A stretch of DNA of 64,000 bases, from assembly GCA_964510315.1 (NCBI GenBank), contig CAZEAP010000014.1:25242-89241 (forward strand), given 5' to 3'. Source of the stretch: an uncultured candidatus Brocadiaceae bacterium (GTDB lineage Bacteria; Planctomycetota; Brocadiia; SM23-32). Under the pieces are notes generated by a model that had not been told where the DNA came from, searched no databases, and was given only the letters and a program-made list of their open reading frames with translations. Shown here in pieces: positions 26,433-64,000 of the stretch. The position numbers and the translations under genes were made by a program. Within the stretch, counting starts at the first letter, position 1. Each line of letters begins with the position of its first letter.

Positions 26433-27683
26433 TCAATATGCCGCCCAGGCAACCACCTGCACGTGGGCGCCGGCGGCGGAGAGTTTCTTGACGCAGCGAC
26501 GTTCGACGATGCCCGAACTGACCACGTCGGAGACCACCAGCGCACCCTCTCCCTCCTCGATAACCGCGTCAACCGCCGGCTCCACGCGCCGGCTTTCCGG
26601 CCCGCTGCTGTCCGCGCGCATCACGTCCCGATAGGGCACCCCGAGCTGGCGGGCTATCGCCTCGGCGAGCTGGCGGGCCGGATACGTGCGGCCGCCCCCG
26701 GCTCCCCCGGGCGCGGGCACGGCCGTTACGAAATCCACCCAGTTGGTCTCCGCTTTCTCGTCCAGCAGGCGGATCAGGTCGTTGGACATACGCTCGGTAA
26801 CCGCGTCGGTCAACTCCCGTTTCCACAGCTTGAACTCCTCCTGCTCGGACCTGGAGAGATCCTGCCAGCGGTGGGCGGCGAAGGCGCCCAGTGTGATGCG
26901 GGCCACGTGGTAGAAAGGTTCCGCTTCCTCCCCCTCCGACTCTGCCACGGTGCCGTGGGCGGTCGCCTCCTTGGCGCTGACGACGGTCTCATGCAGAGAT
27001 GCCTGCTCGGGGACGTAAGCGGCGATGCTCACACGGGGTTTCAGAGACTGAACCTCGCCCCGGTCCCCCAGGCTCAATCGGTAGTTCTCCACGGTTTCCC
27101 GGAGGTTCTCGGCCAACGCCTCGGCCTCGGAGGTCCCCGCCTGGGGTACGACGACCAGGAACTCGTCGCCGCCGAGGCGCCCCACGAGGTGGTCCTCCGG
27201 CACGCTGCTCTCCAGAAGATTGGCGATGTCCTGGAGGACCGCATCCCCGACGGTCTGGCCGAACTCGTAGTTGACCCGATCCAGGTTCACCAGGTCGATG
27301 TCGATCAGCCGCGTGCGCTTGCCGAACTCCTGGGGGCCCATCTCGAAGCGGTCCAGCGCAGTGACCAGGCCCTTCCGGTTGGGCAGACCGGTGAGGGGGT
27401 CGGTAAAGCCGCGTTCGGCGGAGTGCTCCTTGTGGTGGGAGCGCGCCTTCCAGAAAGTGCGCGCCGTGTAGGCCAGCACTACCAGAGACCACACGAACGT
27501 CGCCCACGGCAGCACCTTCAGGAACGTGTTCCGCAGGTCCTCCTGCCGACCCAGCGCCATCGCCCCCGCCAGCAGGAGCGCCACCAGCAGCAGTAGGGCA
27601 AGGAAGGCCCGCCTGGAGGTGCGGTGTATCTGTTCTGTGGCTCCCTCGTCCTCGCTGTCCGATTCTTGCCACATTACCCCCAT
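26433..27683 (-). CDS. membrane-anchored GGDEF diguanylate cyclase fused to a C-terminal ComF-like phosphoribosyltransferase domain
   Basis: N-terminal TM helices, GGDEF domain with intact RLGGDEF. C-terminal roughly 110 aa with a PRTase type-I signature (ALVVSDVVSSGIVERRCVKKLSAAGAHVQVVAWA) resembling ComF. Confidence 0.7.
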   Translation of the reverse strand: MGVMWQESDSEDEGATEQIHRTSRRAFLALLLLVALLLAGAMALGRQEDLRNTFLKVLPWATFVWSLVVLAYTARTFWKARSHHKEHSAERGFTDPLTGLPNRKGLVTALDRFEMGPQEFGKRTRLIDIDLVNLDRVNYEFGQTVGDAVLQDIANLLESSVPEDHLVGRLGGDEFLVVVPQAGTSEAEALAENLRETVENYRLSLGDRGEVQSLKPRVSIAAYVPEQASLHETVVSAKEATAHGTVAESEGEEAEPFYHVARITLGAFAAHRWQDLSRSEQEEFKLWKRELTDAVTERMSNDLIRLLDEKAETNWVDFVTAVPAPGGAGGGRTYPARQLAEAIARQLGVPYRDVMRADSSGPESRRVEPAVDAVIEEGEGALVVSDVVSSGIVERRCVKKLSAAGAHVQVVAWAAY

Positions 27684-28181
27684 GGGTTATTCATCCTCCC
27701 AGTTGCCGGGACGTGTCGACCCTTCTGTAAGAACGGTGGCGGGCGGCCGGGCGCGGCCGCACAGCAGCGCCGTCCCGTCCCCCCGGCACAACTTGATCCG
27801 GAGAGACACCACATAAAGCATACCTTCAAAGCGTTGGCTTTTGCAAGCCCTGCTCCCGCCGCCGGTCGGGACCACGACGCAGGGCTTGTCGGCGCGAGTG
27901 CGCAGGTGCTCCAGAAGCTGCGCTCCGGGCGGGGCACACTCTTCCGAAACCACCGGCGGAACCCGATACCCGGCCCGGCGCGCCCTGGACGTCCTCCGCG
28001 CCTCCACCTGCCCGCAGTGCCGGGCCGTCCTGCACGGGCCGTCCGGACGCGGCAAGCCAAAAGTGTCCTTTCTGTGGTTTCGCGTATACATCCGGCTCCG
28101 TACGCCGATTTGGATTTTGTGTCGTAAGTGCTTCCCCGCGCAAGCCCTGCGGTAAAATGGGTTCGTTTCGTAACCGGGGGT

Positions 28182-29232
28182 CAGTAATCAGTAGTCAGTA
28201 GAGAGTAGTCAGTAGTCAGTAGACAGTGGCCAGTAGGCAGTAGACAGTGGTCAGTAGACAGTAGACAGTGCCGGGCCATCCTGGTCGTACGTGTTCAGCG
28301 TCCAGAGCGACCCGGGCAACGCGGTATATCACACATCGCAGCCCCGCAGGGGCGTTACATACCAGCCCAGGGCATAGCCCTGGGGGTACTTGTAGCGCGA
28401 GCATCCCTGCTCGCAGTGCGCGGTATATCACACATCGCAGCCCCGCAGGGGCGTTACATACACAGCCCAGGGCGTAGCCCTGGGGACCCGGGTGTGGTCC
28501 CAAATAGTTGAGCCCTGTAGGGGCGAGACATACGCCGGGCAGCCGGGCCTCGTCCGGTACATGGCGACATGTCTGTCAACCTCAACGAAAAACGGTAGCA
28601 TCCCTGCTCGGAGTGCGCGGTATACCACACATCGCAGCCCCGCAGGGGCGTTACATACCAGCCCAGGGCGCAGCCCTGGGGGTACTTGTAGCGCGAGCAT
28701 CCCTGCTCGGAGTGCGCGGTATATCACACATCGCAGCCCCGCAGGGGCGTGACATACACAGCCCAGGGCGCAGCCCTGGGGACCCGGGTCCACCCCCCAA
28801 ATAGTTGAGCCCTGTAGGGGCGAGACATACGCCGGGCAGCCGAGACTCGTCCGGTACATGGCGACATGTCTGTCAACCTGAACGAAAGACGGTAGCATCC
28901 CTGCTCGGAGTGCGCGGTATACCACACATCGCAGCCCCGCAGGGGCGTTACATACCAGCCCACGGCGCAGCCCTGGGGGTACTTGTAGCGCGAGCATCCC
29001 TGCTCGGAGTGCGCAGTATATCACACATCGCAGCCCCGCAGGGGCGTTACATACACAGCCCAGGGCGTAGCCCTGGGGACCCGGGTGTGGTCCCAAATAG
29101 TTGAGCCCTGTAGGGGCGAGACATACGCCGGGCAGCCGGGCCTCGTCCGGTACATGGCGACATGTCTGTCAACCTGAACGAAAGACGGTAGACAGTAGTC
29201 AGTAGAGAGTAGTCAGCAGGGAGTAGGCAGCA
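28182..29232. repeat. nested tandem satellite: (CAGTAGN)n microsatellites flanking about three copies of a 297-bp unit built from three diverged 99-bp hairpin-containing subunits
   Basis: CAAATAGTTGAGCCC recurs at 28501, 28798 and 29094. Subunits X, Y1 and Y2 are each exactly 99 bp. Conserved hairpins GCCCC-GCA-GGGGC and CCCAGGGC-(gca/ata/gta)-GCCCTGGG. CAGTAGN heptamers at 28182-28270 and 29188-29232. Confidence 0.85.
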
Positions 29233-29532
29233 CAGGGTTCCCGGATGTTGTGTTGCCGGGTTGTCCAGCCGTTGGGGGAATCCTGTTCGTCGTTCGTTGT
29301 CCCTCCGTCGTTAACTCTGCGTAACTCTGCGTCCTCCGCGGTTAGCAGGACCGTTGAGCGCGGCCATTGTAGCCGTTCGGCGCCCGGGGCGTGTCCGGGT
29401 TGGGCGTTATCGGGGCAACCGATTCGTCTCGCCGGTCCCTGGCCCCACCAGAAGCCCTCTGAGAACCGAAAAATCCGCCGTTCAGCGTTCCGCGAGCCCA
29501 CTCCTGTTGCCAAAAGAGCCCAAAAAAAACCC

Positions 29533-29561
29533 TTGACCCTATTCTAATGAGGGGATATAAT
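29533..29561 (+). promoter_or_regulatory. consensus sigma70 promoter TTGACC-N17-TATAAT upstream of cas3
   Basis: CTTGACCctattctaatgaggggaTATAAT. Perfect -10, near-perfect -35, 17-nt spacer, about 107 nt upstream of the cas3 ATG. Confidence 0.5.
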
Positions 29562-29674
29562 CCCGCTCGGAGGCAGCGACAGGTTGTTTATCGGAAGGGA
29601 CTCACGTGCGCGTTTCCTGGCGCATTCCGAGAACGACCCCGAACTATGACTCGTCCACGGGGGTGTTGTAAGTC

Positions 29675-32323
29675 ATGCACGGATCGCCTGACAGTTTCTG
29701 GGGGAAGCTCCAGCGCGACGAAGAGGGCAGAGCGCGGTGCTGGCACCCACTGGAGGCGCACTGCGCCGATGTGGCGGCGGTCACGGGCGCGCTACTGAAG
29801 CACACGCTGCTGGGGGCTCGGCTCGCCCGACTGATCGGACAAAATGAACTGACCGATGTGCAGGTGGCAAGGCTCTGCGCTTTGGTTGCTCTGCACGACG
29901 CCGGTAAAGTCAATCACGGCTTCCAGGACCAGGCGCCGCCGAAGAGCCGGACACGCGGTGGCCACGTGCGGCCGCTGGTGGACTTCCTTCACGGGCCACG
30001 GGAAACGAAGGGGCGAATCGTTGAAGCGCTCGCACTGGAGCAGATGTCCGGCTGGTGTTGTTCAGAGTCTGGATTTATCTCCCTCCTGCTGTCTTCGTTT
30101 TGCCACCACGGCCGCCCATTGAAGCCCGCCGGCGGATTCGATCCCGGACTCTGGCGGCCCAACGGCCGCCGCGATCCGATAGCCGGCCTGCGGGAGCTGC
30201 GCGAAGCTGCCGTCCGATGGTTCCCTCAGGCGTGGCAGCCGGATCCGCCTTTCCCCTCCTGCCCGGAGTTCGCGCATGCCTTCAATGGAGTTGTAACCCT
30301 GGCCGACTGGATCGGTTCCGACGAGGAGTTCTTTCCGTATGCGAGAGACGGCTCCGACCGCATGCCGGTTGCGTGGGAACGCGCGCGCAATGCCGTCGGC
30401 CGCCTGGGGCTTGACGTGGCGACAGCTCGTCTGTCTCGCGGCGCCGAACCCCCCGGCTTTGGGGAGGTCGCGCCTTACGAGCCTCATCCGGTGCAACGGG
30501 CCTGCGCGGGGCTGCCGCCTCACCCCGAAGGCAGTTTGGCCCTGATCGAATCGGACACCGGCTCGGGGAAGACCGAAGCCGCTTTGGTGCGGTTCCTGCA
30601 ACTGCTGCACGCGGGACTGGTCGACGGGATGTACTTCGCCCTGCCGACGCGCGCTGCCGCTACTCAACTGCACGGGCGGGTTGTGAAGGCCGTAGCCAGG
30701 GCGTTCTCTCGCCGAGAGTCGTGCCCGTCGGTCGTCCTTGCCGTGCCGGGATACCTGCGGGTCGACGAGGCCGAGGGCCGGCGGCTGCCCGAGTTCCGAG
30801 TCCTTTGGCCCGACAAAGAAAGAGACCGCTGGCGCTACCGGGGCTGGGCCGCCGAGAGTTCAAAGAGGTATCTGGCCGCCCCCATCGCCGTGGGGACAGT
30901 GGACCAGGTGCTGCTGTCCGCTCTTCAGGTCAGGCACGCCCATCTGCGAGCAACAGCCCTCCTGCGACACCTGTTGGTGGTAGACGAGGTGCATGCCTCC
31001 GACCCGTACATGGGACGTCTACTGGAGGAAGTGCTCCGCTCTCACCTGCGGGCCGGCGGCCATGCTCTCCTCATGTCGGCCACCCTCGGCACGGCGGCCC
31101 AGGCGCGGCTGCTCGGCCGCCCCGGGTCCGCTCCTCCGGCCCTGGCCGAGGCGCGCGGGATGGCCTATCCCCTGGTGAGCCATCGCTCCGTTGCGGAGGG
31201 GACCATCGAGCGGATCAGCAGCCGGCCCACCGGTTACGAGAAAACTGTAGCCATCAAACTGCTGCCCGCGGCCGGAACCCCGCAGACCTTCGTGCCCATG
31301 GCGCTGGAGGCGGCTTCGCTGGGCGCCCGTGTGCTCATCATCCGCAACACCGTTCGCGACTGCGTGGCCACACAACTTGTCCTGGAAGCGGCAGCGGGGG
31401 ACTCCGTCTCGGTTCTTCTCGCTGCCGAAGGGGTGGTCGCCCCTCACCACTCTCGTTACGCAGCGTGCGACCGCGAGCTGCTGGACGAAGCGGTCGAGAC
31501 AGCCTTTGGCAAGGAGGCGCCACCAGACGGGGTCGTCGCGGTCGCCACGCAGACCGTCGAACAGAGCCTGGACATCGACGCCGACCTGATGATCACCGAC
31601 CTCTGCCCGGCCGACGTCCTTCTTCAACGGATTGGTCGGCTGCACCGCCATCCGGAGCGCCGGCCCCCTGCTTCCCGGCCTGATAAATGCCGCCGGCCCC
31701 GCTGCATCGTTCTCGTTCCCGAACAGCGTTCTTTGGAAAGTCACATCGGCGAGGACGGCCCGGCCTACGGCCCGCACGGCCTCGGAACAGTCTATGAGGA
31801 CCTCCGGGCACTGGAGGCCACCTGGCGGCTGATCGAGGAGAACGCCCAATGGGCCATCCCCGCCATGAATCGCGAACTGGTCGAGGAGGCCACCCATCCC
31901 GAGGCCCTGGAGGCGCTGGTCCGCTCGCTCGGCGGCAGGTGGCCCCGTCACCAGAATTACGTCCTCGCACTTCGCAGCGCGGATCAAGCCCAGGCCGGCA
32001 TAGCCCTCCTGGCTCGGGACAAACCCTTCGGTGAAGTGTTGTTCCCGACGGACCCGGGCGAACGAATAAAAACGCGCCTGGGGGAGGGGGACCGTCTTGC
32101 GGAGTTCCAGACCGAGATGGAGGGCCCTTTCGGTGGCACTTACCGCCGCCTGGACCTCCCCCACTTCTATGCCCCCGAAGCACCCGAAGACGCCTCACCG
32201 CAGAACCCCGTGGTAGAGAACGGAACGCTGCGTTTCACCTTCGGCAACCGGCGTTTTGTCTACAACCGCCTCGGCCTGCATCCGGCCGACGCAGACTATT
32301 TGGAGGAGTCAGGCCATGAATGA
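29675..32323 (+). CDS. cas3: CRISPR-associated helicase/nuclease Cas3 (type I, HD + SF2 helicase)
   Basis: N-terminal HD motifs (HCADVAAV..., LHDAGK), helicase motif I ESDTGSGKTEAAL, motif II VVDEVHASD, C-terminal domain. First gene of the I-E operon. Confidence 0.9.
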   Translation: MHGSPDSFWGKLQRDEEGRARCWHPLEAHCADVAAVTGALLKHTLLGARLARLIGQNELTDVQVARLCALVALHDAGKVNHGFQDQAPPKSRTRGGHVRPLVDFLHGPRETKGRIVEALALEQMSGWCCSESGFISLLLSSFCHHGRPLKPAGGFDPGLWRPNGRRDPIAGLRELREAAVRWFPQAWQPDPPFPSCPEFAHAFNGVVTLADWIGSDEEFFPYARDGSDRMPVAWERARNAVGRLGLDVATARLSRGAEPPGFGEVAPYEPHPVQRACAGLPPHPEGSLALIESDTGSGKTEAALVRFLQLLHAGLVDGMYFALPTRAAATQLHGRVVKAVARAFSRRESCPSVVLAVPGYLRVDEAEGRRLPEFRVLWPDKERDRWRYRGWAAESSKRYLAAPIAVGTVDQVLLSALQVRHAHLRATALLRHLLVVDEVHASDPYMGRLLEEVLRSHLRAGGHALLMSATLGTAAQARLLGRPGSAPPALAEARGMAYPLVSHRSVAEGTIERISSRPTGYEKTVAIKLLPAAGTPQTFVPMALEAASLGARVLIIRNTVRDCVATQLVLEAAAGDSVSVLLAAEGVVAPHHSRYAACDRELLDEAVETAFGKEAPPDGVVAVATQTVEQSLDIDADLMITDLCPADVLLQRIGRLHRHPERRPPASRPDKCRRPRCIVLVPEQRSLESHIGEDGPAYGPHGLGTVYEDLRALEATWRLIEENAQWAIPAMNRELVEEATHPEALEALVRSLGGRWPRHQNYVLALRSADQAQAGIALLARDKPFGEVLFPTDPGERIKTRLGEGDRLAEFQTEMEGPFGGTYRRLDLPHFYAPEAPEDASPQNPVVENGTLRFTFGNRRFVYNRLGLHPADADYLEESGHE

Positions 32324-33884
32324 TACCTGTAAGTACTCTCTTTTGACCGACCCCTTGATCAGCGTTCGGCGTCCCGGCGGCGCGCGTCTTCAGATCGACC
32401 TCCCGGCCGTCCTCGCCGGACTGGCCAAAGATGAGATCGTCTCCTTCGAGGCGCTCCAACCTCACCAGCGACAGGCGTGGTTCTGCTTCCTTGTGCAACT
32501 GGCGGCCATCGCACTGGACCGGTCCGGCCGGGAAGAGCCCTGCCGGAACGCAGAGCAGTGGAGAGAACTTCTGATGGGGCTTACCGATGGGGATGAAGCG
32601 GCCTGGTGCCTGGTAGTCGAGGACGTCTCCCGCCCAGCCTTCATGCAGTCCCCCGTGCCGGAGGGCTCGCTGGACGAGGCCGGATATAAAGCGGACGTCG
32701 CCACGCCCGACGAACTCGACATGTTGGTGTTGTCCAAGGACCACGACGTCAAAAAACACCGCACGGCCCGCCCCGCGACAGAACACTGGCTCTACGCGCT
32801 CCTCACGCTCCAGACCCTGGAGGGGTATTCCGGCAGCCGCAACTACGGAATCATCCGCATGAACGGAGGATACGGCAGTCGCCCCCTCCTGGGCCTCGCG
32901 CCCGCCTTGGGCTGGGGGACACGGTTCCGGCGGGACGTCCCGGCCGTCCTCTCGGCACGGGAACGCCTCGTCCGGGAACGTAACTACGATCCTCAAGGCC
33001 CCGCCTTGCTCTGGCGGCTGCCCTGGGACGGTGCAAAGTCCAGTCGCATCCCCCTGGCGCAGTGCCATCCATTGTTCATCGAGGTCTGCCGAAGAATCCG
33101 GTTCCGTCGCCGCCATGCCGGGCTCGAATGCTGGCGTGCCACAACGGAAGCCGCCAGAATCGCGGCCCCCGAAGACATCAACGGCGCTACCGGCGACCCG
33201 TGGACCCCGGTGGACAAAGCGGAGAACAAGGCATTGAGCGTCGGCAGCAGCGGGTTCGGCTACGACCTTCTGCGCCGCATCCTCCTCACCGGCGACTTCG
33301 AATGGCCGGCCGCCATGGAGCGGACTCCCGCGGAGGAAGGAGGAGCTTACCTGTTGGCCCGTGCCCTGGCCCGGGGACAGGGCAAGACCGAAGGCCTCCA
33401 CCGGCGCGTCGTGCCCGTGCCGGAAAAGGCCCTCGGACGTATTTCGGACACCTCCCGGCGGGAGGAACTGGCCGAAAGGGCCGAGGAACGCGTCGATACC
33501 GCCGCAAAGGTCCAACGCAACGTCCTCTATCCCGCACTTGCCGCCTTGCTGACTGCGGGCCACGAGGCCAAGGTCGATTCGGCACAGGTGCGCCGATGGA
33601 CCGACGCCTTCGACGCGGCCGTCGACGAAGCCTTCTTCCCGGAACTCTGGGCCTCCCTCGGCGTGCCCCGAGAGGAGGCCCGCCGCCGTTGGCAGGAAAA
33701 GCTCAAGAAGTTCGCGGAGCAACAGCTCCAGGACGCCATCCAGAGCGCACCCGTGCCCTCCATCCACCGTTATCGAGCCGTCAGCGCGGCCCAGGCGATC
33801 TTCTACGGCCGTGCCAGGCAGCACCTCACAGCACTTCACCCAAGCACCGAGGAGGCTGAACATGAGCCAGCCGAAAGCAGTTGA
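32316..33884 (+). CDS. cse1: Cascade large subunit Cse1/CasA (Cas8e)
   Basis: Position and length (about 520 aa) typical of I-E. Start ATG at 32316 overlaps the cas3 stop by 8 nt. Confidence 0.8.
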   Translation: MNDTCKYSLLTDPLISVRRPGGARLQIDLPAVLAGLAKDEIVSFEALQPHQRQAWFCFLVQLAAIALDRSGREEPCRNAEQWRELLMGLTDGDEAAWCLVVEDVSRPAFMQSPVPEGSLDEAGYKADVATPDELDMLVLSKDHDVKKHRTARPATEHWLYALLTLQTLEGYSGSRNYGIIRMNGGYGSRPLLGLAPALGWGTRFRRDVPAVLSARERLVRERNYDPQGPALLWRLPWDGAKSSRIPLAQCHPLFIEVCRRIRFRRRHAGLECWRATTEAARIAAPEDINGATGDPWTPVDKAENKALSVGSSGFGYDLLRRILLTGDFEWPAAMERTPAEEGGAYLLARALARGQGKTEGLHRRVVPVPEKALGRISDTSRREELAERAEERVDTAAKVQRNVLYPALAALLTAGHEAKVDSAQVRRWTDAFDAAVDEAFFPELWASLGVPREEARRRWQEKLKKFAEQQLQDAIQSAPVPSIHRYRAVSAAQAIFYGRARQHLTALHPSTEEAEHEPAESS

Positions 33885-38584: not shown

Positions 38585-41500
38585 GGTTCCCCCGCACACG
38601 CGGGGATAGTCCCGAGAGAAGCTGCGCGACGAGCGAAAGGCGCGCGGTTCCCCCGCACACGCGGGGATAGTCCCAAAATCAAACCCGGTTGCCAGCCCGG
38701 TGAGTAGGTTCCCCCGCACACGCGGGGATAGTCCTTGCGCCGGGTCGGCCGGAAGGCTCCGGGGGGGGGTTCCCCCGCACACGCGGGGATAGTCCCAAGG
38801 CTGGGAATACCGGCGGGGCTCAGGAGCTGGTTCCCCCGCACACGCGGGGATAGTCCTTGGGGGAAGAGGCAGCACTGCCGGTACGTAGTGGTTCCCCCGC
38901 ACACGCGGGGATAGTCCGCGATGGAGAAACCTGGACCAGCGGGGCACCGCGGTTCCCCCGCACACGCGGGGATAGTCCGCGACTGAAGGCCGTGACGCAG
39001 GAAATGCCCCCGGTTCCCCCGCACACGCGGGGATAGTCCGCGGATTGGGAATCGGCGGGATACAAAACGGGGGGTTCCCCCGCACACGCGGGGATAGTCC
39101 CGAGGCGGGGCAGTGGGCGCTGGCGGCGATGAAGGTTCCCCCGCACACGCGGGGATAGTCCGTAGCCGCTCATCTCAACTCCTCGCTCTGGCGAGGTTCC
39201 CCCGCACACGCGGGGATAGTCCCGGCGGTGCACGGGCCTGACACGCGGCGTGCAGGGTTCCCCCGCACACGCGGGGATAGTCCGCGGGTGTGGACGGCAA
39301 TCAAGGACCTGGCGAGGGTTCCCCCGCACACGCGGGGATAGTCCCCAACGTGCGATCGAGCTGACCCTGACTGGCCTGGTTCCCCCGCACACGCGGGGAT
39401 AGTCCTTTTGTTGGAGGAACAAAAGGCTCTGAGGGAGTGGTTCCCCCGCACACGCGGGGATAGTCCCCCGAGACTTTAACTGCATACGTGCATCCTATTG
39501 GTTCCCCCGCACACGCGGGGATAGTCCGTGACAGTACCATCGCCGACCAGAACGCCGACGGGTTCCCCCGCACACGCGGGGATAGTCCCTTACTGCTGTT
39601 GAAATGCCGACCGCTTCTCGTGGTTCCCCCGCACACGCGGGGATAGTCCTTGCGAGCCTTGCTGTTCGGCAGGCCCTCGACGGGTTCCCCCGCACACGCG
39701 GGGATAGTCCCGCTGGCATGTACTGGCCCGGGGGAGGAGCCCAGGTTCCCCCGCACACGCGGGGATAGTCCGATGGTCCAACGCAAACGCTTTGCGTTGT
39801 CCTTGGTTCCCCCGCACACGCGGGGATAGTCCATTGGTACGGGGGCTCCGGTCAGCGCGGTATCGGGTTCCCCCGCACACGCGGGGATAGTCCTTCTCAT
39901 CTTCTTTGGACTCCTTTTGGGGAAAAGGTTCCCCCGCACACGCGGGGATAGTCCCGGTCTTTTCATCTACGCAATCGAAGTAGATGAGGTTCCCCCGCAC
40001 ACGCGGGGATAGTCCCTTCGGTTTCGTCTGTTGCGGGAACGTGCCCTTGGTTCCCCCGCACACGCGGGGATAGTCCCATCCGGCCTCCAAAGCTTGACAC
40101 TGCCCTACCGGTTCCCCCGCACACGCGGGGATAGTCCTTCTCATCCGCCTCCAACCCGTACACGAACAAAGGTTCCCCCGCACACGCGGGGATAGTCCGT
40201 CCTTTGTGGGCAAGGGGTTATGACGTGCAATGGTTCCCCCGCACACGCGGGGATAGTCCCCAGCTTTTCCCCAAAAGGAGTCCAAAGAAGATGGTTCCCC
40301 CGCACACGCGGGGATAGTCCCCTTGCGGAATCGACAGATAGCGAGCCCAACCAGGTTCCCCCGCACACGCGGGGATAGTCCCCTTCCGAACCTACTGCGT
40401 GAAAACTGGACAGAGGTTCCCCCGCACACGCGGGGATAGTCCCACCCCCTCGATCTTCGCGGCCGCCCACTCGAAGGTTCCCCCGCACACGCGGGGATAG
40501 TCCCGGGAGACAGACTGATGGCACTGACGGCAGCGAGGTTCCCCCGCACACGCGGGGATAGTCCCGTAGACCTCTCCAGTCCAGTCCAGCATCGCCGGGT
40601 TCCCCCGCACACGCGGGGATAGTCCATCCGGAGCTTGGTCAATCTGTTTCGGATCTAAGGTTCCCCCGCACACGCGGGGATAGTCCCCAGCTCCCAGCAC
40701 GTTGCGCACAGCCGGGCTCGGTTCCCCCGCACACGCGGGGATAGTCCCCTACTCTTACGGGAGGACGCCGATGGCCGATGGGTTCCCCCGCACACGCGGG
40801 GATAGTCCCCGGGCGAAGCTCGTGCCGAAGATACCGGGGTCGGTTCCCCCGCACACGCGGGGATAGTCCCTCGCCGGCCTCCAGGTCCGTCGTGGGGCAC
40901 TCGGTTCCCCCGCACACGCGGGGATAGTCCGCCTTATTACCTGAAGCGCGATTTACGCGAGGCGGTTCCCCCGCACACGCGGGGATAGTCCGAGATAGCG
41001 GATTACTTCCGTGGCGGTTGTCTGGGTTCCCCCGCACACGCGGGGATAGTCCCTATCCGCCCGCATAGCCCTTGTGCTAACCCTGGGTTCCCCCGCACAC
41101 GCGGGGATAGTCCTCGCAAAAGATCAAGGCCCCGGGTTCCAAGCAAGGTTCCCCCGCACACGCGGGGATAGTCCTCACGAAGACGGACGTTGAGAGGGCC
41201 CTTAAAGGGTTCCCCCGCACACGCGGGGATAGTCCCTCAGCCATTTGACCCCCCCATATGGATAACTGGGTTCCCCCGCACACGCGGGGATAGTCCCGTA
41301 GCCTTCGAGTAGGCAATGCCGTCGGCGTTGGTTCCCCCGCACACGCGGGGATAGTCCTTCTCCCCCTCCCGGGCGCTGCCGGAGGCACCGGGTTCCCCCG
41401 CACACGCGGGGATAGTCCCCTTGTATAGGTCAACGTACGGAGCCGTTTTCTGGTTCCCCCGCACACGCGGGGATAGTCCGCCGTTGACCGGGCACGTGGC

Positions 41501-44500
41501 GAGGTCGCGGTGGGTTCCCCCGCACACGCGGGGATAGTCCCGGCCAGCCCCGTAATCGTCGTTCCGGTATGCGGGTTCCCCCGCACACGCGGGGATAGTC
41601 CGGTGCGCACGCGCGTGATGCGGCGCGACCTGCGGGTTCCCCCGCACACGCGGGGATAGTCCCACGCCGAGGGTGCCCAGCACCTCCGTCAGGCTGGTTC
41701 CCCCGCACACGCGGGGATAGTCCCGCATCGGCGTCCGTGGGGTCCGTCATGCTGATGGTTCCCCCGCACACGCGGGGATAGTCCGCGCAGGTCCTCCGGC
41801 CGGGCGCCACCCTCGAGGGTTCCCCCGCACACGCGGGGATAGTCCGCGGGTGGACGTGACACCCCGCTACCTCAGCGAGGTTCCCCCGCACACGCGGGGA
41901 TAGTCCCGACGGCCCGGAGTGGGTGATCGAGATCGAGGAGGTTCCCCCGCACACGCGGGGATAGTCCGCGCACGATCGCCCCCCTGCCGGAGGGCATGAC
42001 GGTTCCCCCGCACACGCGGGGATAGTCCGTGTACGACCGCCGGCAGCCGCGGGTCATCGGGGGTTCCCCCGCACACGCGGGGATAGTCCCCTCTACATGA
42101 TATGCACGGTTGCGCATGTCCTGGTTCCCCCGCACACGCGGGGATAGTCCCGGTACTCCCGTCTACGGCATCCCCCTCTCTGCGGTTCCCCCGCACACGC
42201 GGGGATAGTCCTCGCTCCTACACCGGCAACGTCCGGGGACTCGCGGTTCCCCCGCACACGCGGGGATAGTCCCGACGGCATCGAGGGTATCCTTGCCGAG
42301 GTCGTGGTTCCCCCGCACACGCGGGGATAGTCCACTCGCTCGCGGGGTCCGGCGGGGTCTGACCCGGGTTCCCCCGCACACGCGGGGATAGTCCCAGCGT
42401 GTGGCCGGAGCGCTTCCCGGCCGGGGAGGTTCCCCCGCACACGCGGGGATAGTCCGCCTTATTACCTGAAGCGCGATTTACGCGAGGCGGTTCCCCCGCA
42501 CACGCGGGGATAGTCCGAGATAGCGGATTACTTCCGTGGCGGTTGTCTGGGTTCCCCCGCACACGCGGGGATAGTCCCTATCCGCCCGCATAGCCCTTGT
42601 GCTAACCCTGGGTTCCCCCGCACACGCGGGGATAGTCCTCGCAAAAGATCAAGGCCCCGGGTTCCAAGCAAGGTTCCCCCGCACACGCGGGGATAGTCCT
42701 CACGAAGACGGACGTTGAGAGGGCCCTTAAAGGGTTCCCCCGCACACGCGGGGATAGTCCCTCAGCCATTTGACCCCCCCATATGGATAACTGGGTTCCC
42801 CCGCACACGCGGGGATAGTCCCGTAGCCTTCGAGTAGGCAATGCCGTCGGCGTTGGTTCCCCCGCACACGCGGGGATAGTCCTTCTCCCCCTCCCGGGCG
42901 CTGCCGGAGGCACCGGGTTCCCCCGCACACGCGGGGATAGTCCCCTTGTATAGGTCAACGTACGGAGCCGTTTTCTGGTTCCCCCGCACACGCGGGGATA
43001 GTCCTTGGGGGGGTTAGTCGTCGTCCTGGAGTACTGCGGTTCCCCCGCACACGCGGGGATAGTCCCTTCGGTTTCGTCTACGGGAACATGCTGGCCTTGG
43101 TTCCCCCGCACACGCGGGGATAGTCCGATGCTCCAGCGAAGGCGCTTCTGATTCTGCTTGGTTCCCCCGCACACGCGGGGATAGTCCGTCAGGCCCTTAT
43201 TGGCTTGGCTACCGATATTCGGTTCCCCCGCACACGCGGGGATAGTCCCGTAGGGGACGTACACCGCTCCAGATCTGGCCTGGTTCCCCCGCACACGCGG
43301 GGATAGTCCGTAACGGCAGAGGAGCCCAGGGGAAAGAAATCCGGTTCCCCCGCACACGCGGGGATAGTCCCCTGGGCGGGGCAGTCGACGCATCCGCACT
43401 GGAGGTTCCCCCGCACACGCGGGGATAGTCCGTAGCCGCTCATCTCAGCTCCTCGCCCGGGCGAGGTTCCCCCGCACACGCGGGGATAGTCCCTGCTCGC
43501 ACGGGGAGGCAGCGCATACGCTAAAGGTTCCCCCGCACACGCGGGGATAGTCCTAGGGGAACCGGGAGGCAAAGTTCTGGTTCTGGGGTTCCCCCGCACA
43601 CGCGGGGATAGTCCGGTAACAGAACAATAAGGCAGTGAATGAAGGAGGGTTCCCCCGCACACGCGGGGATAGTCCGTGCCCCGGTGCCAGAGGAGCCGGC
43701 GGCGCTATGGTTCCCCCGCACACGCGGGGATAGTCCTCCCGTTTGGATGAACAGCCTTCCCATTCCACAGGTTCCCCCGCACACGCGGGGATAGTCCTCT
43801 ACAGGTTTCTGGACATCCCTCTTACATAGCGGTTCCCCCGCACACGCGGGGATAGTCCCCATCCCTTCTTCGTCTGCATGAAGAAGGAGCTGGTTCCCCC
43901 GCACACGCGGGGATAGTCCCGTGGTTCTTTACACGGAAGTTGTCAGCCTTGAGGTTCCCCCGCACACGCGGGGATAGTCCCCTGATGGCAAAGAACCGTG
44001 AAACCGGACGGGCGGTTCCCCCGCACACGCGGGGATAGTCCCGGTGATGAGGAGTTCATCCCTCTGGCGAATGAGGTTCCCCCGCACACGCGGGGATAGT
44101 CCCGCCGCCGGAGCCGATCCCGTACTCGACAGGCTGGTTCCCCCGCACACGCGGGGATAGTCCCTCAACCTGCACGATCTCATGGCACCAGTCAAGGGTT
44201 CCCCCGCACACGCGGGGATAGTCCTTCTAAAACGTGGCATCCTGCGGTATCTGAGGTGGTTCCCCCGCACACGCGGGGATAGTCCTCCGGCTCAGAGCAG
44301 TTGCTGCCTGCCGCGGAAGGTTCCCCCGCACACGCGGGGATAGTCCTTTGCTATAGCAAACGGTGTGCCAACGTGCCGCGGTTCCCCCGCACACGCGGGG
44401 ATAGTCCCCGCCACCGCCCGCCCTCGAACGCCGGCTGGAGGGTTCCCCCGCACACGCGGGGATAGTCCGCCGTTCCAGGCGGACTGGATCGACGCGAGCC

Positions 44501-44652
44501 GGGTTCCCCCGCACACGCGGGGATAGTCCCGAGCGGGGGCAGTGGGCGCTGGCGGCGATGAAGGTTCCCCCGCACACGCGGGGATAGTCCCGGCCTCACC
44601 AGGCCGCGGAGCAGCGACTGGCGGGTTCCCCCGCACACGCGGGGATAGTCCT
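38585..44652 (+). CRISPR. Type I-E CRISPR array: 100 repeats of 29 bp (GGTTCCCCCGCACACGCGGGGATAGTCCN) with 99 spacers of 32 nt
   Basis: Strict 61-bp periodicity from 38585; the 100th repeat sits at exactly 44624. Repeat hairpin CCCCGC-ACAC-GCGGGG plus an 8-nt 3' handle ATAGTCCN whose last base varies (C/T/G/A). Leader-proximal to cas2, same strand as the cas genes. Confidence 0.95.
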
Positions 44653-57879: not shown

Positions 57880-57956
57880 TCCCCGATAGCTCAATTTGGT
57901 AGAGCGGGCGGCTGTTAACCGCTAGGCTGGAGGTTCGAGCCCTCCTCGGGGAGCCA
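57880..57956 (+). tRNA. tRNA-Asn (anticodon GTT)
   Basis: Cloverleaf: acceptor TCCCCGA/TCGGGGA, D-arm GCTCAATTTGGTAGAGC, anticodon loop CUGUUAA, T-arm GGTTCGAGCCC, discriminator G, encoded CCA. Confidence 0.9.
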
Positions 57957-58374
57957 CCCTTTTTGTAGCGGACATCCGAGCGCCTTCCCGTTAACGCAAG
58001 ACCCCGAGAGCGAGAGCCTTCGGGGTTTTCGCACATCCCGCCCCTGCGCAACCCTTTAGCGCATTCCCGCCAGCCTGCCCGTACTCTCCGTTTCGAAAGA
58101 GAGTTTCCGGGGTCCGAAAGCAACCGTGGGGGTTGCGCTCGGTACCCGAAAATTAGCGGAAAAACTCTCTGACTCTCCGTTGAACAACCCCCTCTGGGTT
58201 AACAACCGCGTACGGCCCGGACCCCGAAAGCAACCCCTACGGAAGCCCGGGCAGCGTTTGACGACTTCATCCGGGATCCGTAGGGTGTGGGTTGAGGTGG
58301 AGTCCCCCGGAGGGTCTTGGGGAGGTCATGCCTCTGAGACCTGATTACACCGAACGCCATGAATGAGACACGCC

Positions 58375-59769
58375 ATGCGACTGTACCTGATCAATCCCTC
58401 CAACCCGAGCGTCAGCAGCGTCAACCTCGAAGACAGCCGCTGGAACCGTTACCGCGTTTGGAAACCACTCGGCCTCATGGTTCTGGCGGGCCTGACCCCA
58501 CGTGAGTGGGACGTGTCGATCGTGGACGAGAACGTCGGCGTGCCTGGCTACCCGTCCATGCCTCGGCCTGACTTGGTGGGCATCACGGCCTTCACGGCGC
58601 AGGCAAACCGCGCCTATGAGATAGCCGCCCACTACCGGCGCCTGGGCGTCCCCGTCGTCATGGGCGGCATTCACGCGACCATGTGTGTGGATGAGGCCGT
58701 GGAGCGCGCGGACTCGGTCGTTACGGGAGAAGCCGAAGGCATATGGGCGCAGGTCCTCCAGGACGCCCAGCATGGCAGATTGAAGCGGCGGTACGACGGA
58801 GGGCTGGCTGACATGAAGGCCTTCTGCCCGCCCCGTCATGATTTGCTGCCTGCGGGGTATGCCTTCGGAGCCATCCAGACGACGCGGGGCTGTCCATTGA
58901 ACTGCAGTTTTTGCAGCGTGACGGCGTTCAACGGGGCTCAGTACCGCCAGCGACCCATTCCGGGTGTCGTCCGGGAATTCAAGTTGATTCGTGAAAAACG
59001 CGTTCTGATCGTGGACGATAACCTGATTGGCACGCGTCCGGAGCACGTCGCCCGTGCCAAGGACCTGTTCCGCGCCATGGCCCGTGCAGACCTACGAAAA
59101 GAGTGGGTTGCCCAGGCGACCATCAACTTCGCCGATGATGAAGAGCTTCTGGCGTTGGCCACCAGGGCCGGGTGCAAGGGCGTGTTCATTGGCTTTGAGT
59201 CGCCCACGCCTGAAGGGCTTGGGGAGATCGGCAAACGTTTCAACCTCCTGAATAACCGGGACTTCCGCGCTTCCGTGCGGCGCATACAACGGCACGGGAT
59301 ACTGGTTGTGGGTTCCTTCATCATCGGTTTGGACGCGGACGAAGCGGGCATCGGCAAACGTGTGGCTGAGGCAGCCAGCCGCTACGGCCTGGACAGCATA
59401 AACGTGGGGTTTTTGACCCCGCTGCCCGGCACGCGCCTATGGGACCGAATGAGCGCCGAGGGACGTGTCGCATTCCATGATTACCCTGGTGATTGGGATT
59501 ACTACACTCTGAACTTGCCAGTGGCCCATTACAAACATTTCTCTCAGGACGGTCTCTTTCAGGAGATGATGTCCTGCAACCGGAGCTTTTACTCGATCCG
59601 ACGCGTTCTGGGGCGGGGACTGAGGAACGTGTGGCAGCACCGTGCGCCTTTGTTCAACCTGGTGGCCAATCTCTCGTACAGGCGCAACTTTCGTCTCGAC
59701 TGTAAGGGATACGTAGACTTGAGGCGCGAACAGGGCAGCGCCAACCCCCCGCCTGGCTCCAGAGGTTAG
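58375..59769 (+). CDS. B12-binding (class B) radical SAM protein
   Basis: N-terminal cobalamin-binding-like Rossmann segment (LYLINPS...GITAFT), then radical SAM motif GCPLNCSFCSV and an elongated TIM-barrel region. Confidence 0.75.
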   Translation: MRLYLINPSNPSVSSVNLEDSRWNRYRVWKPLGLMVLAGLTPREWDVSIVDENVGVPGYPSMPRPDLVGITAFTAQANRAYEIAAHYRRLGVPVVMGGIHATMCVDEAVERADSVVTGEAEGIWAQVLQDAQHGRLKRRYDGGLADMKAFCPPRHDLLPAGYAFGAIQTTRGCPLNCSFCSVTAFNGAQYRQRPIPGVVREFKLIREKRVLIVDDNLIGTRPEHVARAKDLFRAMARADLRKEWVAQATINFADDEELLALATRAGCKGVFIGFESPTPEGLGEIGKRFNLLNNRDFRASVRRIQRHGILVVGSFIIGLDADEAGIGKRVAEAASRYGLDSINVGFLTPLPGTRLWDRMSAEGRVAFHDYPGDWDYYTLNLPVAHYKHFSQDGLFQEMMSCNRSFYSIRRVLGRGLRNVWQHRAPLFNLVANLSYRRNFRLDCKGYVDLRREQGSANPPPGSRG

Positions 59770-60101
59770 CCCTTCCGTCCTGCCTTCTGCACCCCAGTCC
59801 GACGTTTCGAACTTCCCCCGTGCAAGTAAGGACAGGCGGCGACTTGGCCCTCGAAAGACGCCTCGCAGAATCGGCCTGAAGGCGGATTACAGGGGGCAAA
59901 TACACTGCATCTGCGAATGACGCCCCCGATCTAATCGACGTTCGCGACAGTGCGGCTGCGGCCAAGAGAAGGAAAGGTTGTGGATCGCGCAAGGCAACGC
60001 AACGAGGATCTTCCAACTGGCCAAGTCTGCCAAGCCGCACTAGCGAGCGCTCAACGCGTTGCAGTTACCCCGACGTCCGCACACAACGGGTTCGCAACCG
60101 G

Positions 60102-61607
60102 CTATTTTTCAGAGGCGGATTGTTTATTGAGCATGTCTTTCAGGATGGTCCCCATCAGGGCGTCGGTCGTTCCGCCACCGGGTCCACCCACCATTACGTC
60201 GGGTGTTATCCTTATTCCCTCTGTGGCAACAAGTTTCATAATTTCCAGCAGTGCGGCATTGTCCGCGCCGATTACTTCGGAGACCATCTTGTAAGCCTGC
60301 GCCTTTGCCTCGGCAACGAGCTTGACCTGTTCGGCTTCCGCCTGAGCGTCGATGATTCTTTTTTGCTTTTCCTGCTCGGCGACCTTAACGCCGTAAGCGG
60401 CGGTAGCGAGGCGTTTTTCTTCCTCGGCCTCCTGTCGTGTGCTTTCGAGGGCCTTTTGTTTTTCGGCGGCCCGTTGCTGTTCTTCAAAGGTAGCCTGCTC
60501 CTGCAGGGCTATTTCGCGGTCGGTCTGAGTCTTTAGGAGTGCTCCGAGGGTTTCTTTGTCACCGACATCCCCTATTCGAACAGCGAGCACCGTAACACCG
60601 TATTCACTCAGTTCTTTCTCAAGCATCGTGGCGCTCTGTTGTTCCTGGACCGAACGGTTCTGAACGTAATCGAGGGCCTTAACCTGCTCCGCGTTATTCC
60701 TGAATATGGCCCGGACGGTGGGCGTGACGAGTTTGCTGAGGATGAAATCGTTGCCGCCTATGGTGGCCACCACGCCGGGAGCATTTTCGCGGTCAATGCG
60801 ATAGCTCACACGAACATCGACAGGGAAGGTAAAACCATCTTTGCTTCGTACCGAGATAGGCTGACGTTCCTGTGTCTCCTCTTCTCCTCTTTCCAGCTCC
60901 GTTGTATAACTGACTTTTACCTGACGGATGCTGACCTTGGTTATTTCATAGGCGTTGGTGTTCAGGTAATACTTACCTTCGGACAGGGGTGTATTCCAGA
61001 CACCTCTCTGGCCTTTTTCGACGAGGCGGTCATCAGATTCCACCGTTTCGCCCACGTTGCTCTTTACCACTGCAACCGTTCCTATTTCAACGTTTGTTAC
61101 AGGGACCTGGGTAACTGAAAACAACTTTGTATTGAGGCGGTATTTTCCCGGCTTCAGAACAGTAAGCTGCGGGCCTTTATAGCCCCCTCCTTCGTCGAGG
61201 AAGTACTTGGCATCAATCATCTTGTCCGGTGTTTCCCATTCGGGCGCGTATATGGTATCAGCCGGTAGGCTCCGACCGTCGGCCGCGGTCAACAGCCCGA
61301 CATGATCCTGCTTTATCTCGGTGACGAGGACTTTACTTACATCATATTGCCACGGCCAATAGAAGAAATGCCAGCCGGGTGTCAATACCTGGGCCTGGAT
61401 GCCGTTCTCGCCCTTGACAGCGAGGATACGGTCCTGTGGCAGCGGGCCTCCGCCAAGCTTCTTTTCCACGAGGCCCAGCTGGTCGCCGTCGATTTTCACC
61501 ACTGAAAGGGCAAAGACAATGGCAAGGACGATCAGCACTGCCACGATTGCAATAGCAACGGGACCGAGCTTGCCCATACGCGCAGGGAGACCTCTGTAAT
61601 TATCCAT
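60102..61607 (-). CDS. flotillin-like SPFH/band-7 domain protein
   Basis: N-terminal TM, SPFH domain, long C-terminal Ala/Glu/Gln-rich coiled coil (EAEEEKRLATAAYGVKVAEQEKQKRIIDAQAEAEQVKLVAEAKAQAY). Markedly lower GC than the surrounding DNA. Confidence 0.8.
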   Translation of the reverse strand: MDNYRGLPARMGKLGPVAIAIVAVLIVLAIVFALSVVKIDGDQLGLVEKKLGGGPLPQDRILAVKGENGIQAQVLTPGWHFFYWPWQYDVSKVLVTEIKQDHVGLLTAADGRSLPADTIYAPEWETPDKMIDAKYFLDEGGGYKGPQLTVLKPGKYRLNTKLFSVTQVPVTNVEIGTVAVVKSNVGETVESDDRLVEKGQRGVWNTPLSEGKYYLNTNAYEITKVSIRQVKVSYTTELERGEEETQERQPISVRSKDGFTFPVDVRVSYRIDRENAPGVVATIGGNDFILSKLVTPTVRAIFRNNAEQVKALDYVQNRSVQEQQSATMLEKELSEYGVTVLAVRIGDVGDKETLGALLKTQTDREIALQEQATFEEQQRAAEKQKALESTRQEAEEEKRLATAAYGVKVAEQEKQKRIIDAQAEAEQVKLVAEAKAQAYKMVSEVIGADNAALLEIMKLVATEGIRITPDVMVGGPGGGTTDALMGTILKDMLNKQSASEK

Positions 61608-62228
61608 TAATTCATCCTCTCAAAGGAGTCAAAACATTACCTCTGCCATCTGCTGCAGTATTGGGTTGCCGCCACTAATGCTGCCGCTCTCGCCTGACGC
61701 CTGGAAGCGATGGGGGAGACGGACAACGTCACGGACAGACACGTCGTCGTTCTGGTGAACAAGGGCGGCTTCGACCCTTCCCGCAGGCCAGGAGGTCTCC
61801 CCTGATGCACCAGCCCAAAGGATAGCCAGTCGCGGGGTGCCTGTCAACCGGTTCGGAGAGAAAAGCGGACGCCAGTCCGACGTTTCGAACTCCGGCGGGG
61901 TATGTAAACAGCAGAGAGAGTACACCGTCCTGCCCGACGCCGCACCGGCGGCAAGGCCGAGGTCGTCGTGGGCTTGAGCTCGACTGGACTGCGCAGCGCG
62001 ACATGTGGGGCGAGATAAGGGCGTCGACTAAGCTCACCTGAACCCGCCGGACACGGCCAGAACAATAACACGAATTCGCGAACCCGTGTACCCGAAACGC
62101 GGGTCGGGGGCGAATCGTCTCAGAGCGGCGAAAACGGCACCCAGCGGCTCAATTGGCGGAGAGGCCTACCGGGCGGAAGGCAAAGCGGACTGATAGGAGC
62201 CCAGCGTAAGGGCGTTCATAGCCAGGTC

Positions 62229-62915
62229 TCATGTTGCTCGCGAGGGGACGTTGAGCACAAGAATAAAATCTTCGCTGAAGTGGTGCCGAAGGAGCCGAGG
62301 TACGAACCTGAGGTCCAATCCGCGCTTCTCCTGCACCCAGATGAGCTGCGAGGGCACCAGACCGCATCGGCGCGCCATCTCCATAAGGGTCACGGGATCA
62401 TACCAGCAGGTGTGCTCAGGATGGACGCAACTATGACCGTACTTCAGTATCTTCCATGTCCACATAGTGCAGAAGGGATTGGGGGTGCTCAGGGCCAGTA
62501 TGCCATTGCGCTCGAGGTGCCGGGCCATATTTCTGAGGAACGCATCGGGAGAAGAAAGATGCTCTATCACCTCTCCAGCCACGATGGCTTCGAAGCGTTC
62601 TCCCAGGTCGCATGTGCAAGCGTCGGCCGCGACCGCCCTATAGCCCATACGCTGGAGTTCGGCGACACCGTCGGCGTCGAGGTCTATACCCAAGCAATCG
62701 GCGCTCGCCCTGGCAATGCGGACGTGACGATCGAGAGTATCCTTGGTTGCCGAAGACTGTGGCCTGACTCCCGTGCACCCCACATTGAGCACACCCTTTT
62801 CCGCCGCCAAGGAAGCAAGGGCGTCGATGCGGTCACAAACGATTTCAGCAGCCTGCAAGACAGCATAGCGCTGACTATCGAGGTTCTTGGAACTGAACAT
62901 AATTTTGCTCCCCAA
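62229..62915 (-). CDS. class I SAM-dependent methyltransferase (Methyltransf_11/12-like)
   Basis: VLNVGCTG motif I, acidic motif II, EVIEHL motif. Confidence 0.65.
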   Translation of the reverse strand: MGSKIMFSSKNLDSQRYAVLQAAEIVCDRIDALASLAAEKGVLNVGCTGVRPQSSATKDTLDRHVRIARASADCLGIDLDADGVAELQRMGYRAVAADACTCDLGERFEAIVAGEVIEHLSSPDAFLRNMARHLERNGILALSTPNPFCTMWTWKILKYGHSCVHPEHTCWYDPVTLMEMARRCGLVPSQLIWVQEKRGLDLRFVPRLLRHHFSEDFILVLNVPSRAT

Positions 62916-63070
62916 TTCAACGCATTAGCAGTGCTGGCAGGTTGCGTCGAGATGATAGCTCTATACAGTTCCTCGCCAATTGAGCAGTGGAGTGTAAGGT
63001 TTTGCATAGAGGAAAGCAACGGACACATACGGCGACTCCGAGAGAAAGCCCGACCGAAGAGGGCGAGGCC

Positions 63071-63385
63071 GCCGGACACAAGTTCTTCGGCCCGAACAAC
63101 GCCGAGGACCTGTGGCACGTGAGGAAGATCGCGCCGCCCAAGATGGTCCACCTGACCGAGAAGCCGGTCGAGCTGGCCGTGCGCGCCATCCAGTACTCGA
63201 GCCGCCTCGGCGAGAACGTGCTGGACCTGTTCGGCGGGTCAGGCTCCACCCTTATCGCCTGCGAGCAGACGGGCCGGCGGGCGTTCCTGATGGAAGTGGA
63301 CGAGCTCTACTGCGACGTCATCGTTCAGAGGTGGGAGAACTTCACGGCCCTTAGGCCCAGACGCATCGACGGAGACCAGGCATGA
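63071..63385 (+). pseudogene. C-terminal fragment of a beta-class DNA methyltransferase (N-terminal catalytic part missing)
   Basis: ...HLTEKPVEL... followed by motif I LDLFGGSGSTLIACE. The homologous region of the intact MTase at 13695 is ...LDPFMGTGTTAAV. No SPPY motif IV precedes it; the upstream ORF sequence is non-homologous. Confidence 0.45.
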
Positions 63386-63528
63386 AAGGCGGACGAAATG
63401 CCGGAAAAGTCCGCGAGCACCGGGCCGACTTGATCATTGCCAGATGATCAAGCTCCGCTACAATCGAGGCCGATGGGAAGCAGGTACGGGAAGATCAAGA
63501 CATCTTCAGTGCCAGGAAGGAGGTTAAG

Positions 63529-63993
63529 GTGGCACCGTCGAGATCGGACAGCACATTGGAGGCGTTAGTTCGTCATACCATGGGGCAGTTTCCCAGCGTC
63601 TACCTGACGCTGGTAGGTGTCATTCAAAGCGTCGTGTTTGGCTACCTTCTTTATCAATTGTTCGAACCGCGGCTTCCAGAAACAGTAATAACCTGGCTGC
63701 GCTGCGCGGTCGCCTTCTTGGTCGTTGTGGCCACGTGGCATGAGTACCAGGCGGGGCTAACATTGTTCCGTTGGTTGCCAACCATTGCGGATTCCTTTCT
63801 GCCGTTTTTGATCGGATTCTGCGAGGCATCGATAATCTGGACGGTTGACAGCAAAGGGCCTTGGTGGTGCGTCTCCATGGGAGGGTTCTGCGCTGTAGCT
63901 TGGGCAGCATATGCGAATATGCGACGTCAAGTCGCCTCGTACGGGTGGGGCATTTGCGCTGTGGGGGTGCTCAGGCGCGGGACGCGCGGATGA
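63529..63993 (+). CDS. hypothetical membrane protein
   Basis: 154-aa ORF with four predicted TM helices, after a GGAGG RBS. Confidence 0.45.
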   Translation: MAPSRSDSTLEALVRHTMGQFPSVYLTLVGVIQSVVFGYLLYQLFEPRLPETVITWLRCAVAFLVVVATWHEYQAGLTLFRWLPTIADSFLPFLIGFCEASIIWTVDSKGPWWCVSMGGFCAVAWAAYANMRRQVASYGWGICAVGVLRRGTRG

Positions 63994-64000
63994 TGCCACA

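Follow-up and report, generated by a model that had tools for sequence, protein, structure and literature searches.

A tandem array of RF01687 hairpin modules between a GGDEF gene and cas3 as a probable cluster of REP-type elements

The spacer between the GGDEF gene and cas3

The window, i.e., the whole 64-kb stretch of DNA analysed here, contains a GGDEF gene on the minus strand and a cas3 gene on the plus strand, with a spacer of 1991 bp between them (Table 1). A first-pass annotation had taken these two genes as the borders of a long intergenic region, and their coordinates, 27683 and 29675, agree with that description. The homologues of the GGDEF protein carry the names Candidatus Brocadiia or Planctomycetes. 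No Pfam domain was found in the ORFs of this 2-kb spacer and, apart from the family discussed in the next section, the only Rfam families matched in it were F6 and 5.8S, both at chance level.

TRF detects a tandem array within the spacer, in which a 297-bp period is repeated 2.9 times and a 99-bp period is nested; the satellite of about three 297-bp units with 99-bp subunits recognised earlier is thus upheld. Its core had been placed at 28271-29187, and the array is indeed found there, but the left edge has to be moved to 28320, as 28271-28319 is unique sequence lying outside the array. The hairpin CCCAGGGC-nnn-GCCCTGGG is matched six times, always in the array, where 0.24 matches would be expected by chance in the 64-kb window, and GCCCCGCAGGGGC is likewise counted six times. 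It had been stated that every subunit retains two hairpins; this is true of subunits A and B, whereas subunit C bears GCCCTGTAGGGGC alone and then continues into unrelated sequence. Similarly, the stems had been described as conserved, but the hp1 stem of copy A3 (28959-28977) has one mismatch. As the hairpin of subunit C corresponds to hp0 (see below), the 297-bp unit reads, on the minus strand, hp0-hp1-hp2 (B) and then hp1-hp2 (A). The complete order on this strand is hp0, 27 nt, hp1 and hp2 of B, a tail with a small palindrome, hp1 and hp2 of A, a second tail and, finally, about 60 nt that are unit-specific.

Table 1. Features of the spacer and of its flanking genes (window coordinates; bit scores for the Rfam model RF01687 and for the rebuilt model R1)
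Feature	Positions	Strand	Details
GGDEF gene	26433-27683	minus	
Left heptamer microsatellite, (CAGTAGN) ~13	28180-28270		TRF period 7, 12.9 copies
Tandem array, ~2.9 units of 296-297 bp	28320-29191	minus	TRF score 1616, 95% matches
Putative REP copy A1	28340-28384	minus	hp1 28366-28384, hp2 28341-28353; RF01687 41.8 bits; R1 42.4 bits
Putative REP copy B1	28439-28484	minus	hp1 28466-28484, hp2 28440-28452; RF01687 34.2 bits, E 1.8e-5; R1 35.4 bits
hp0, unit 1	28512-28524	minus	minus-strand GCCCCTACAGGGC; of the module's three hairpins, the small inner one
Putative REP copy A2	28636-28680	minus	RF01687 44.4 bits, over gathering score
Putative REP copy B2	28735-28780	minus	RF01687 33.5 bits; R1 33.5 bits
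hp0, unit 2	28809-28821	minus	
Putative REP copy A3	28933-28977	minus	RF01687 33.9 bits
Putative REP copy B3	29032-29077	minus	RF01687 34.2 bits
hp0, unit 3	29105-29117	minus	
Small palindrome CGAGCA-tccc-TGCTCG	28398-28413, 28694-28709, 28991-29006		GTAG just before it on the plus strand
Right heptamer microsatellite	29183-29232		unit and orientation as left; TRF, pattern search
Sigma-70-like promoter, TTGACC-17-TATAAT	29533-29561	plus	11/12 matches
cas3	29675-32323	plus	

The small palindrome is specific to this array, as it was absent from all of the approximately 210 loci fetched, and GTAG, which like CGTC is a conserved 5′ tetranucleotide beside the palindromes of REP/REPIN-RAYT systems, is present only 5′ of this palindrome and inside the heptamers. 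These heptamers, (CAGTAGN)n, had been reported on both sides of the array, and TRF and a pattern search concur in placing them there. The differences between units are distributed as a mosaic, with unit 1 similar to unit 3 over the B/C part and unit 2 similar to unit 3 over the A part, which suggests recombination between units.

The 99/297-bp period had been regarded as a constant multiple of three, but the spacing is either 296 or 297 bp, and unit 2 differs by an indel of 1 bp (GGGTCCACCCCCC versus GGGTGTGGTCCC), which breaks the frame. This is relevant for the idea that a long ORF over the repeats, such as the one at 28428-29096 on the minus strand, codes for a repetitive protein. ORFs of 80-222 aa do occur on both strands, and a marginal Pfam match (Phage_zn_bind_8, 26.3 bits) could be cited in favour of this idea; however, that match spans 10 profile positions, and no stretch passes alone. 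Additionally, the indel means that the third repeat within the 222-aa ORF of the minus strand falls in a different frame, and the family to which the repeats belong is intergenic, is found on both strands and varies by changes that compensate stems rather than preserve codons. The weak Pfam match and the frame-shifting indel led us to reject coding repeats, and a translated repetitive protein must be considered extremely improbable.

RF01687 copies in the window and in other genomes

When the window was compared with Rfam by cmscan, six copies of RF01687 (Acido-Lenti-1) were found on the minus strand, two of them over the gathering score of 37 bits and the other four just under it (33.5-34.2 bits, E ~2e-5). 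Weinberg et al. (2010, PMC2864571) reported Acido-Lenti-1 from Acidobacteria and Lentisphaerae and judged it a probable non-coding RNA, and the seed alignment of that work already includes tandem copies in Lentisphaera araneosa, with periods of ~74-200 bp. A covariance model rebuilt from 50 sequences of this seed, called R1 here, recovered with its filters off the same six copies and no others in the 64 kb. The window copies fit the architecture of the family, i.e., a hairpin of 8 bp, a linker of ~12 nt and a hairpin of 5 bp, with the conserved GGCU...CG...CU, and they share with it the tandem arrangement; among the unpaired bases of the module, those conserved are a CU that follows hp1, a C ahead of hp2 and a U behind hp2. 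By contrast, the host of the window copies is, to judge from the names of the GGDEF homologues, a planctomycete, and hp0 is missing from the Rfam model. The motif forms a single cluster in the window with all of its copies direct, and this common orientation indicates a REP cluster rather than REPIN doublets.

An exact-pattern scan with one genome per species yielded at least 120 loci in at least eight phyla, and R1 gave 174 and 54 matches in the loci of the pattern scan. Among the loci listed, the carriers belong to Planctomycetota, Verrucomicrobiota, Acidobacteriota, Lentisphaerota, Chlamydiota, Bacteroidota, Desulfobacterota and some Gammaproteobacteria. Many loci are seen per MAG in these other carriers; for instance, the motif is found on at least nine contigs of Opitutia 336R. 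The flanks of the family loci reveal a third small hairpin, hp0, with the consensus CGCCCYTNCRGGGCT, which lies upstream of hp1 at a median of 24 nt, and a perfect GC-rich hp0 accompanies 60-68% of copies versus 13% of control windows. Among the loci listed, 34 of the 47 adjacent pairs of dispersed copies adopt a head-to-head arrangement, separated by 82-213 bp, and the paired copies constitute a palindrome of ~240 bp. To judge from their arrangement, these doublets look like a transposase unit minus its gene, in the manner of REPINs or MITEs. The motif is not specifically tied to cas loci.

Association with Y1 transposase genes

Recurrent neighbours of the motif were sought by all-against-all clustering of the ORFs in the motif-selected loci, and one specific recurrent family was obtained, a protein of ~150 aa that is present in six loci. 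It belongs to Y1_Tnp (PF01797), with Pfam E values from 1e-15 to 1e-24. At four loci (L065, L110, L111 and L125), the Y1 gene is bordered by two copies of the motif, one to its left on the minus strand and one to its right on the plus strand. TnpB was not among the families recovered from the ORFs neighbouring the motif.

For an independent test, four of the six proteins were aligned, and 80 metagenome Y1 loci were picked by protein similarity alone (48-64% identity). R1 found 180 matches in these loci (236 kb in total), and 68 of the 80 contained at least one; when only the best 150 matches are considered, the motif is still found in 60 of them. The curated RF01687 model of Rfam gave 25 matches at or over its gathering score, distributed in 20 of the loci, and no motif match was found in the control, four unrelated loci covering 54 kb. 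Among the best 150 matches, 48 loci have an upstream copy, and in 42 of them the one closest to the gene is on the opposite strand, with a median distance of ~61 bp to the start codon. A downstream copy is found in 43 loci, and the closest one shares the strand of the gene in 35 of these, with a median distance of ~53 bp from the stop codon; 32 loci have both. The order on each side is gene, hp0, ~24 nt, hp1 and hp2, and the stems beside Y1 genes are alike within a locus and different between loci. Direct arrays like that of the window are also observed in this setting: 26 of the 54 adjacent pairs beside Y1 genes are direct, in runs of up to six copies, including six copies with an 82-bp period at one locus (L192) and three with a 136-bp period at another (L176).

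The Y1 proteins have 147-151 aa and, in the alignment of four proteins, contain the motifs DH[LVI]H, WQ[SND]GY and YI..Q.EHH and a conserved tail, ...E.YVWD (ERYVWD). They reach 22-24 bits on the RAYT model NF047646, with a cut-off of 80, and are consequently not canonical class-2 RAYTs, while they narrowly pass the IS200/IS605 model NF033573 (56-61 bits for a cut-off of 55). No solved structure related to the Y1 protein was matched by sequence in the PDB. The family of these proteins is very large, and many of its members have been named “RayT” by JGI. In the literature searched, we found no paper that ties RF01687 or Acido-Lenti-1 to RAYT or REP, so the link between RF01687 and Y1 genes appears to be undocumented so far. 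No Y1 gene or remnant was found in the 64-kb window, in the 2-kb spacer within it or in the adjoining Logan contig (L001).

RNA gene, regulatory element or REP-type DNA

Rfam classifies RF01687 as “Gene; sRNA” and, if this classification is followed, the subunits would be small structured RNA genes, transcribed from the minus strand and acting in trans. Two copies over the gathering score of Rfam, the strong covariation of both helices and the “y” that the motif received for RNA from Weinberg et al. (PMC2864571) are all in line with this classification. The covariation itself, however, is of an unexpected kind. Stem pairs were counted in 129 distinct family members of the unbiased, Y1-derived alignment and, with the caution that alignments fitted to a model lean towards the modelled structure, 99.1% of the 1628 pair cells are standard, with 282 cells that show double-sided changes, spread over 12 of the 13 pairs. 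The covariation of these stems clearly exceeds that of the shuffle and slide controls. Despite these 282 double-sided changes, there is not a single one-sided change of the G-U type, and the rare mismatches are, in the sense of Rfam, A.C and not G.T (7 versus 0 in the Y1-derived set, and 43 versus 6 in the pattern-biased set). A G.U wobble in one subunit variant had been put forward as a sign of RNA-level structure, but this argument is not supported, given the lack of G-U-type changes, and the variant is the usual form of hp0 and one of the A.C mismatches in the Rfam sense. Folding of the unit is little better than that of its shuffles on either strand (z of -2.0 and -2.4).

The changes in the stems therefore seem easier to reconcile with a DNA palindrome than with an RNA and would be unlike those of typical structured RNAs; this is what we infer from the counts, given that the model had guided the alignments. 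Other observations also speak against RNA genes, such as the inverted copies at fixed distances around a transposase gene, the head-to-head doublets, and the lack of promoter-like or terminator-like sites in the array interior and the adjoining DNA, the cas3 promoter-like site further away being the sole candidate. Altogether, we consider it very unlikely that the subunits are genes for small RNAs.

A different possibility is that the array acts in cis on the GGDEF gene and cas3 as a regulatory or architectural element, be it a BIME-like site for gyrase or IHF, an insulator or a phase-variable spacer, and this would be compatible with an origin as REP sequences. The BIMEs of E. coli bind gyrase and IHF, the array is located in a divergent promoter region of 2 kb, and a variable number of repeat copies is conceivable. 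The predicted cas3 promoter, however, is 114 bp 5′ of the ATG and lies outside the array, 300 bp beyond it, and the start of the GGDEF gene is 500 bp away on the other side. Moreover, the Y1 gene is the sole recurrent neighbour of the family, without recurrent cas genes, and the ABC ATPases and histidine kinases seen nearby are generic. The spacer upstream of the closest orthologues of the GGDEF gene (L211 and L213, with 70-72% identity) is short, and neither the array nor the RF01687 motif nor a cas locus was found at these loci, which have no neighbours in common with the window. For these reasons, we find a cis-acting function unlikely, although less so than the RNA genes.

Since the repeat is, elsewhere, the inverted flank of a small ssDNA transposase gene, the array is most likely selfish DNA rather than an RNA gene or a regulator of cas. 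In our opinion, it is likely a cluster of palindromic REP-type elements, non-autonomous and arranged in tandem, of a known kind. The first-pass annotation had offered three readings, including a REP/BIME-like satellite; this one stands, as the family flanks Y1 genes in inverted orientation, while the argument from RNA structure is not supported.

The closest parallels are the REP/REPIN-RAYT systems (PMC3116915) and the “TIRtrons” (Di Nocera 2013, PMC3733652), with which the RF01687 family shares short extragenic palindromes, a lone Y1 gene with inverted copies and dispersed inverted doublets. In Pseudomonas fluorescens SBW25, tandem REP arrays with two alternating REP types in a single orientation have been described (Bertels & Rainey 2011, PMC3116915), and the window array is also ordered, with two alternating variants in one orientation. 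There are, nevertheless, several differences from REP/REPIN-RAYT. The RF01687 module has ~95 nt and three hairpins, compared with a single palindrome of 20-40 bp, and the Y1 protein linked to it is not a class-2 RAYT. In addition, the window copies are exclusively direct, with neither a REPIN doublet nor a RAYT within the 64 kb; both the inverted flanking of the Y1 gene and the inverted doublets are seen for the family elsewhere and not in the window.

Regarding the transposase, the RF01687-flanked proteins match, by comparison of motifs, the TnpAY1 subclass 1.2 of Quentin et al. (2018, PMC6006769) in length, in the HuH, W and Y motifs and in the C-terminal tail, as that subclass was defined by 148 aa, DH[IV]H, WQ, YIKNQKEHH and a C-terminal domain. 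The same work lists the subclass as having no REP (“no”) and a low copy number, and as present mostly in Cyanobacteria and Bacteroidetes (PMC6006769). By contrast, most of the metagenome members considered here are flanked by RF01687 modules, and PVC phyla and Acidobacteriota are among the carriers. Class 3 of the same classification comprises proteins of Planctomycetes and Acidobacteria with atypical flanking structures (PMC6006769), but its motifs differ from those of our Y1 proteins. IS200/IS605 insertion sequences carry subterminal hairpins on one and the same strand at their two ends, often together with tnpB, and their genes are multicopy with high identity; this does not fit the RF01687 modules, which are inverted and not direct at the gene ends, and TnpB was not recovered.

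Taking the family as a whole, we think it likely that RF01687 is not an sRNA, but the missing DNA substrate (the cognate REP/TIR) of TnpAY1 subclass 1.2, and that both together form a REPtron/REPIN-like replicator with a three-hairpin module, distributed across PVC phyla, Acidobacteriota, Bacteroidota and others, of which direct tandem arrays would be by-products. This differs from the Rfam type in that a transposase-linked DNA repeat is indicated, and it suggests that the “sRNA” family RF01687 is perhaps mis-typed. If this proposal is true, an orphan transposase subclass that was reported as REP-less in 2018 would gain a candidate DNA partner, testable in vitro, and REPIN-like systems would reach well beyond Proteobacteria. 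The link between RF01687 and Y1 transposases may accordingly be seen as a useful by-product of the study of the array.

In the model that we favour for this REP-type family, a Y1 enzyme supplied in trans would recognise the hairpins as single-stranded DNA and mobilise the modules. The window copies would probably go back to a single insertion, the target being a heptamer microsatellite, with later amplification in place through slippage during replication or through unequal recombination. The 95% identity and the mosaic pattern of the units would point to an event that is recent or to gene conversion that is still going on.

The heptamers themselves seem to be of another nature. The two runs of (CAGTAGN)n are the only ones in the 64 kb (14 matches versus 0.07 expected), but period-7 arrays are the dominant short tandem repeats in all fetched loci, often as reverse-complementary pairs. 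As such arrays are common across loci, only modestly enriched near the motif (~2.6-fold denser) and rare in Y1-centred loci, we rejected the heptamers as a part of the module and regard them as a separate repeat class that brackets the cluster by happenstance. They are similar to the TAACTGA-type heptamer repeats of MacGregor (2015, PMC4679880) in forming intergenic heptamer arrays, but differ from them in the unit sequence and the taxa, and in not being placed beside start codons.

As for the window, a candidate ncRNA or cas regulator can be removed from its description, and the satellite becomes ordinary repeat DNA, most likely selfish or neutral, in a permissive divergent intergenic region. 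The array may affect supercoiling, recombination or assembly as a side effect and, in particular, is likely to break short-read assemblies.

Heptamer arrays at the repeat block and in other genomes

Among short tandem repeats in the loci fetched from Planctomycetota, Verrucomicrobiota, Acidobacteriota, Bacteroidota and IMG/VR, arrays with a period of 7 far outnumber every other kind: 178 sequences contain 79 of them, and the sequence of their unit differs from genome to genome. Many of them come in pairs, two arrays with reverse-complementary units separated by 4-250 bp, forming heptamer-built palindromes.

Heptamer arrays and the array-internal palindrome (L numbers, fetched loci)
Feature	Sequence	Position	Remark
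Heptamer arrays	window	28180-28270, 29183-29232	
Heptamer array	L008	1669-1962	
Heptamer arrays	L010		n=19
Heptamer array	L038	2129-2268	
Heptamer array	L044	6637-6735	
Heptamer array	L055	153-1235	
Heptamer array	L112	4810-4986	
Heptamer array	L146	1263-1335	
CGAGCA-tccc-TGCTCG (perfect palindrome)	window	28398-28413, 28694-28709, 28991-29006	array-internal

The repeat region is absent from the short-read assembly of an overlapping Logan contig (L001, SRR7048227_18621), which carries the GGDEF gene and ends at about 28066 of the window, 383 bp upstream of this gene and some 115 bp short of the heptamer array.

Small repeats in and beside the array

The small palindrome was found only within the window array. 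On the plus strand a GTAG stands directly before it, a combination that resembles a GTAG-tagged REP. Additionally, the stretch that separates the array from the promoter-like site of cas3 contains a perfect direct repeat (two copies of TAACTCTGCG, 29312-29332), which may be a protein-binding site.

The three-hairpin motif on viral contigs

The motif pattern also matches IMG/VR contigs, which are viral or proviral, in nine stretches (L002-L010). True three-hairpin modules are found in L002, L003/L005, L004 and L008. The matches in L006, L007 and L009 look like chance ones within coding sequence.

Surroundings of the repeat block

A long CRISPR array (38707-44652; repeat GGTTCCCCCGCACACGCGGGGATAGTCC, period 61 bp) lies 3′ of the cas3-led operon, and together they fit a type I-E-like locus; the ORF following cas3 (32256-33884) has no Pfam match. 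Further downstream, directly past a tRNA gene (57880-57953), G+C drops from about 67% to 56-61% across 58000-64000, which may be an integrated island.
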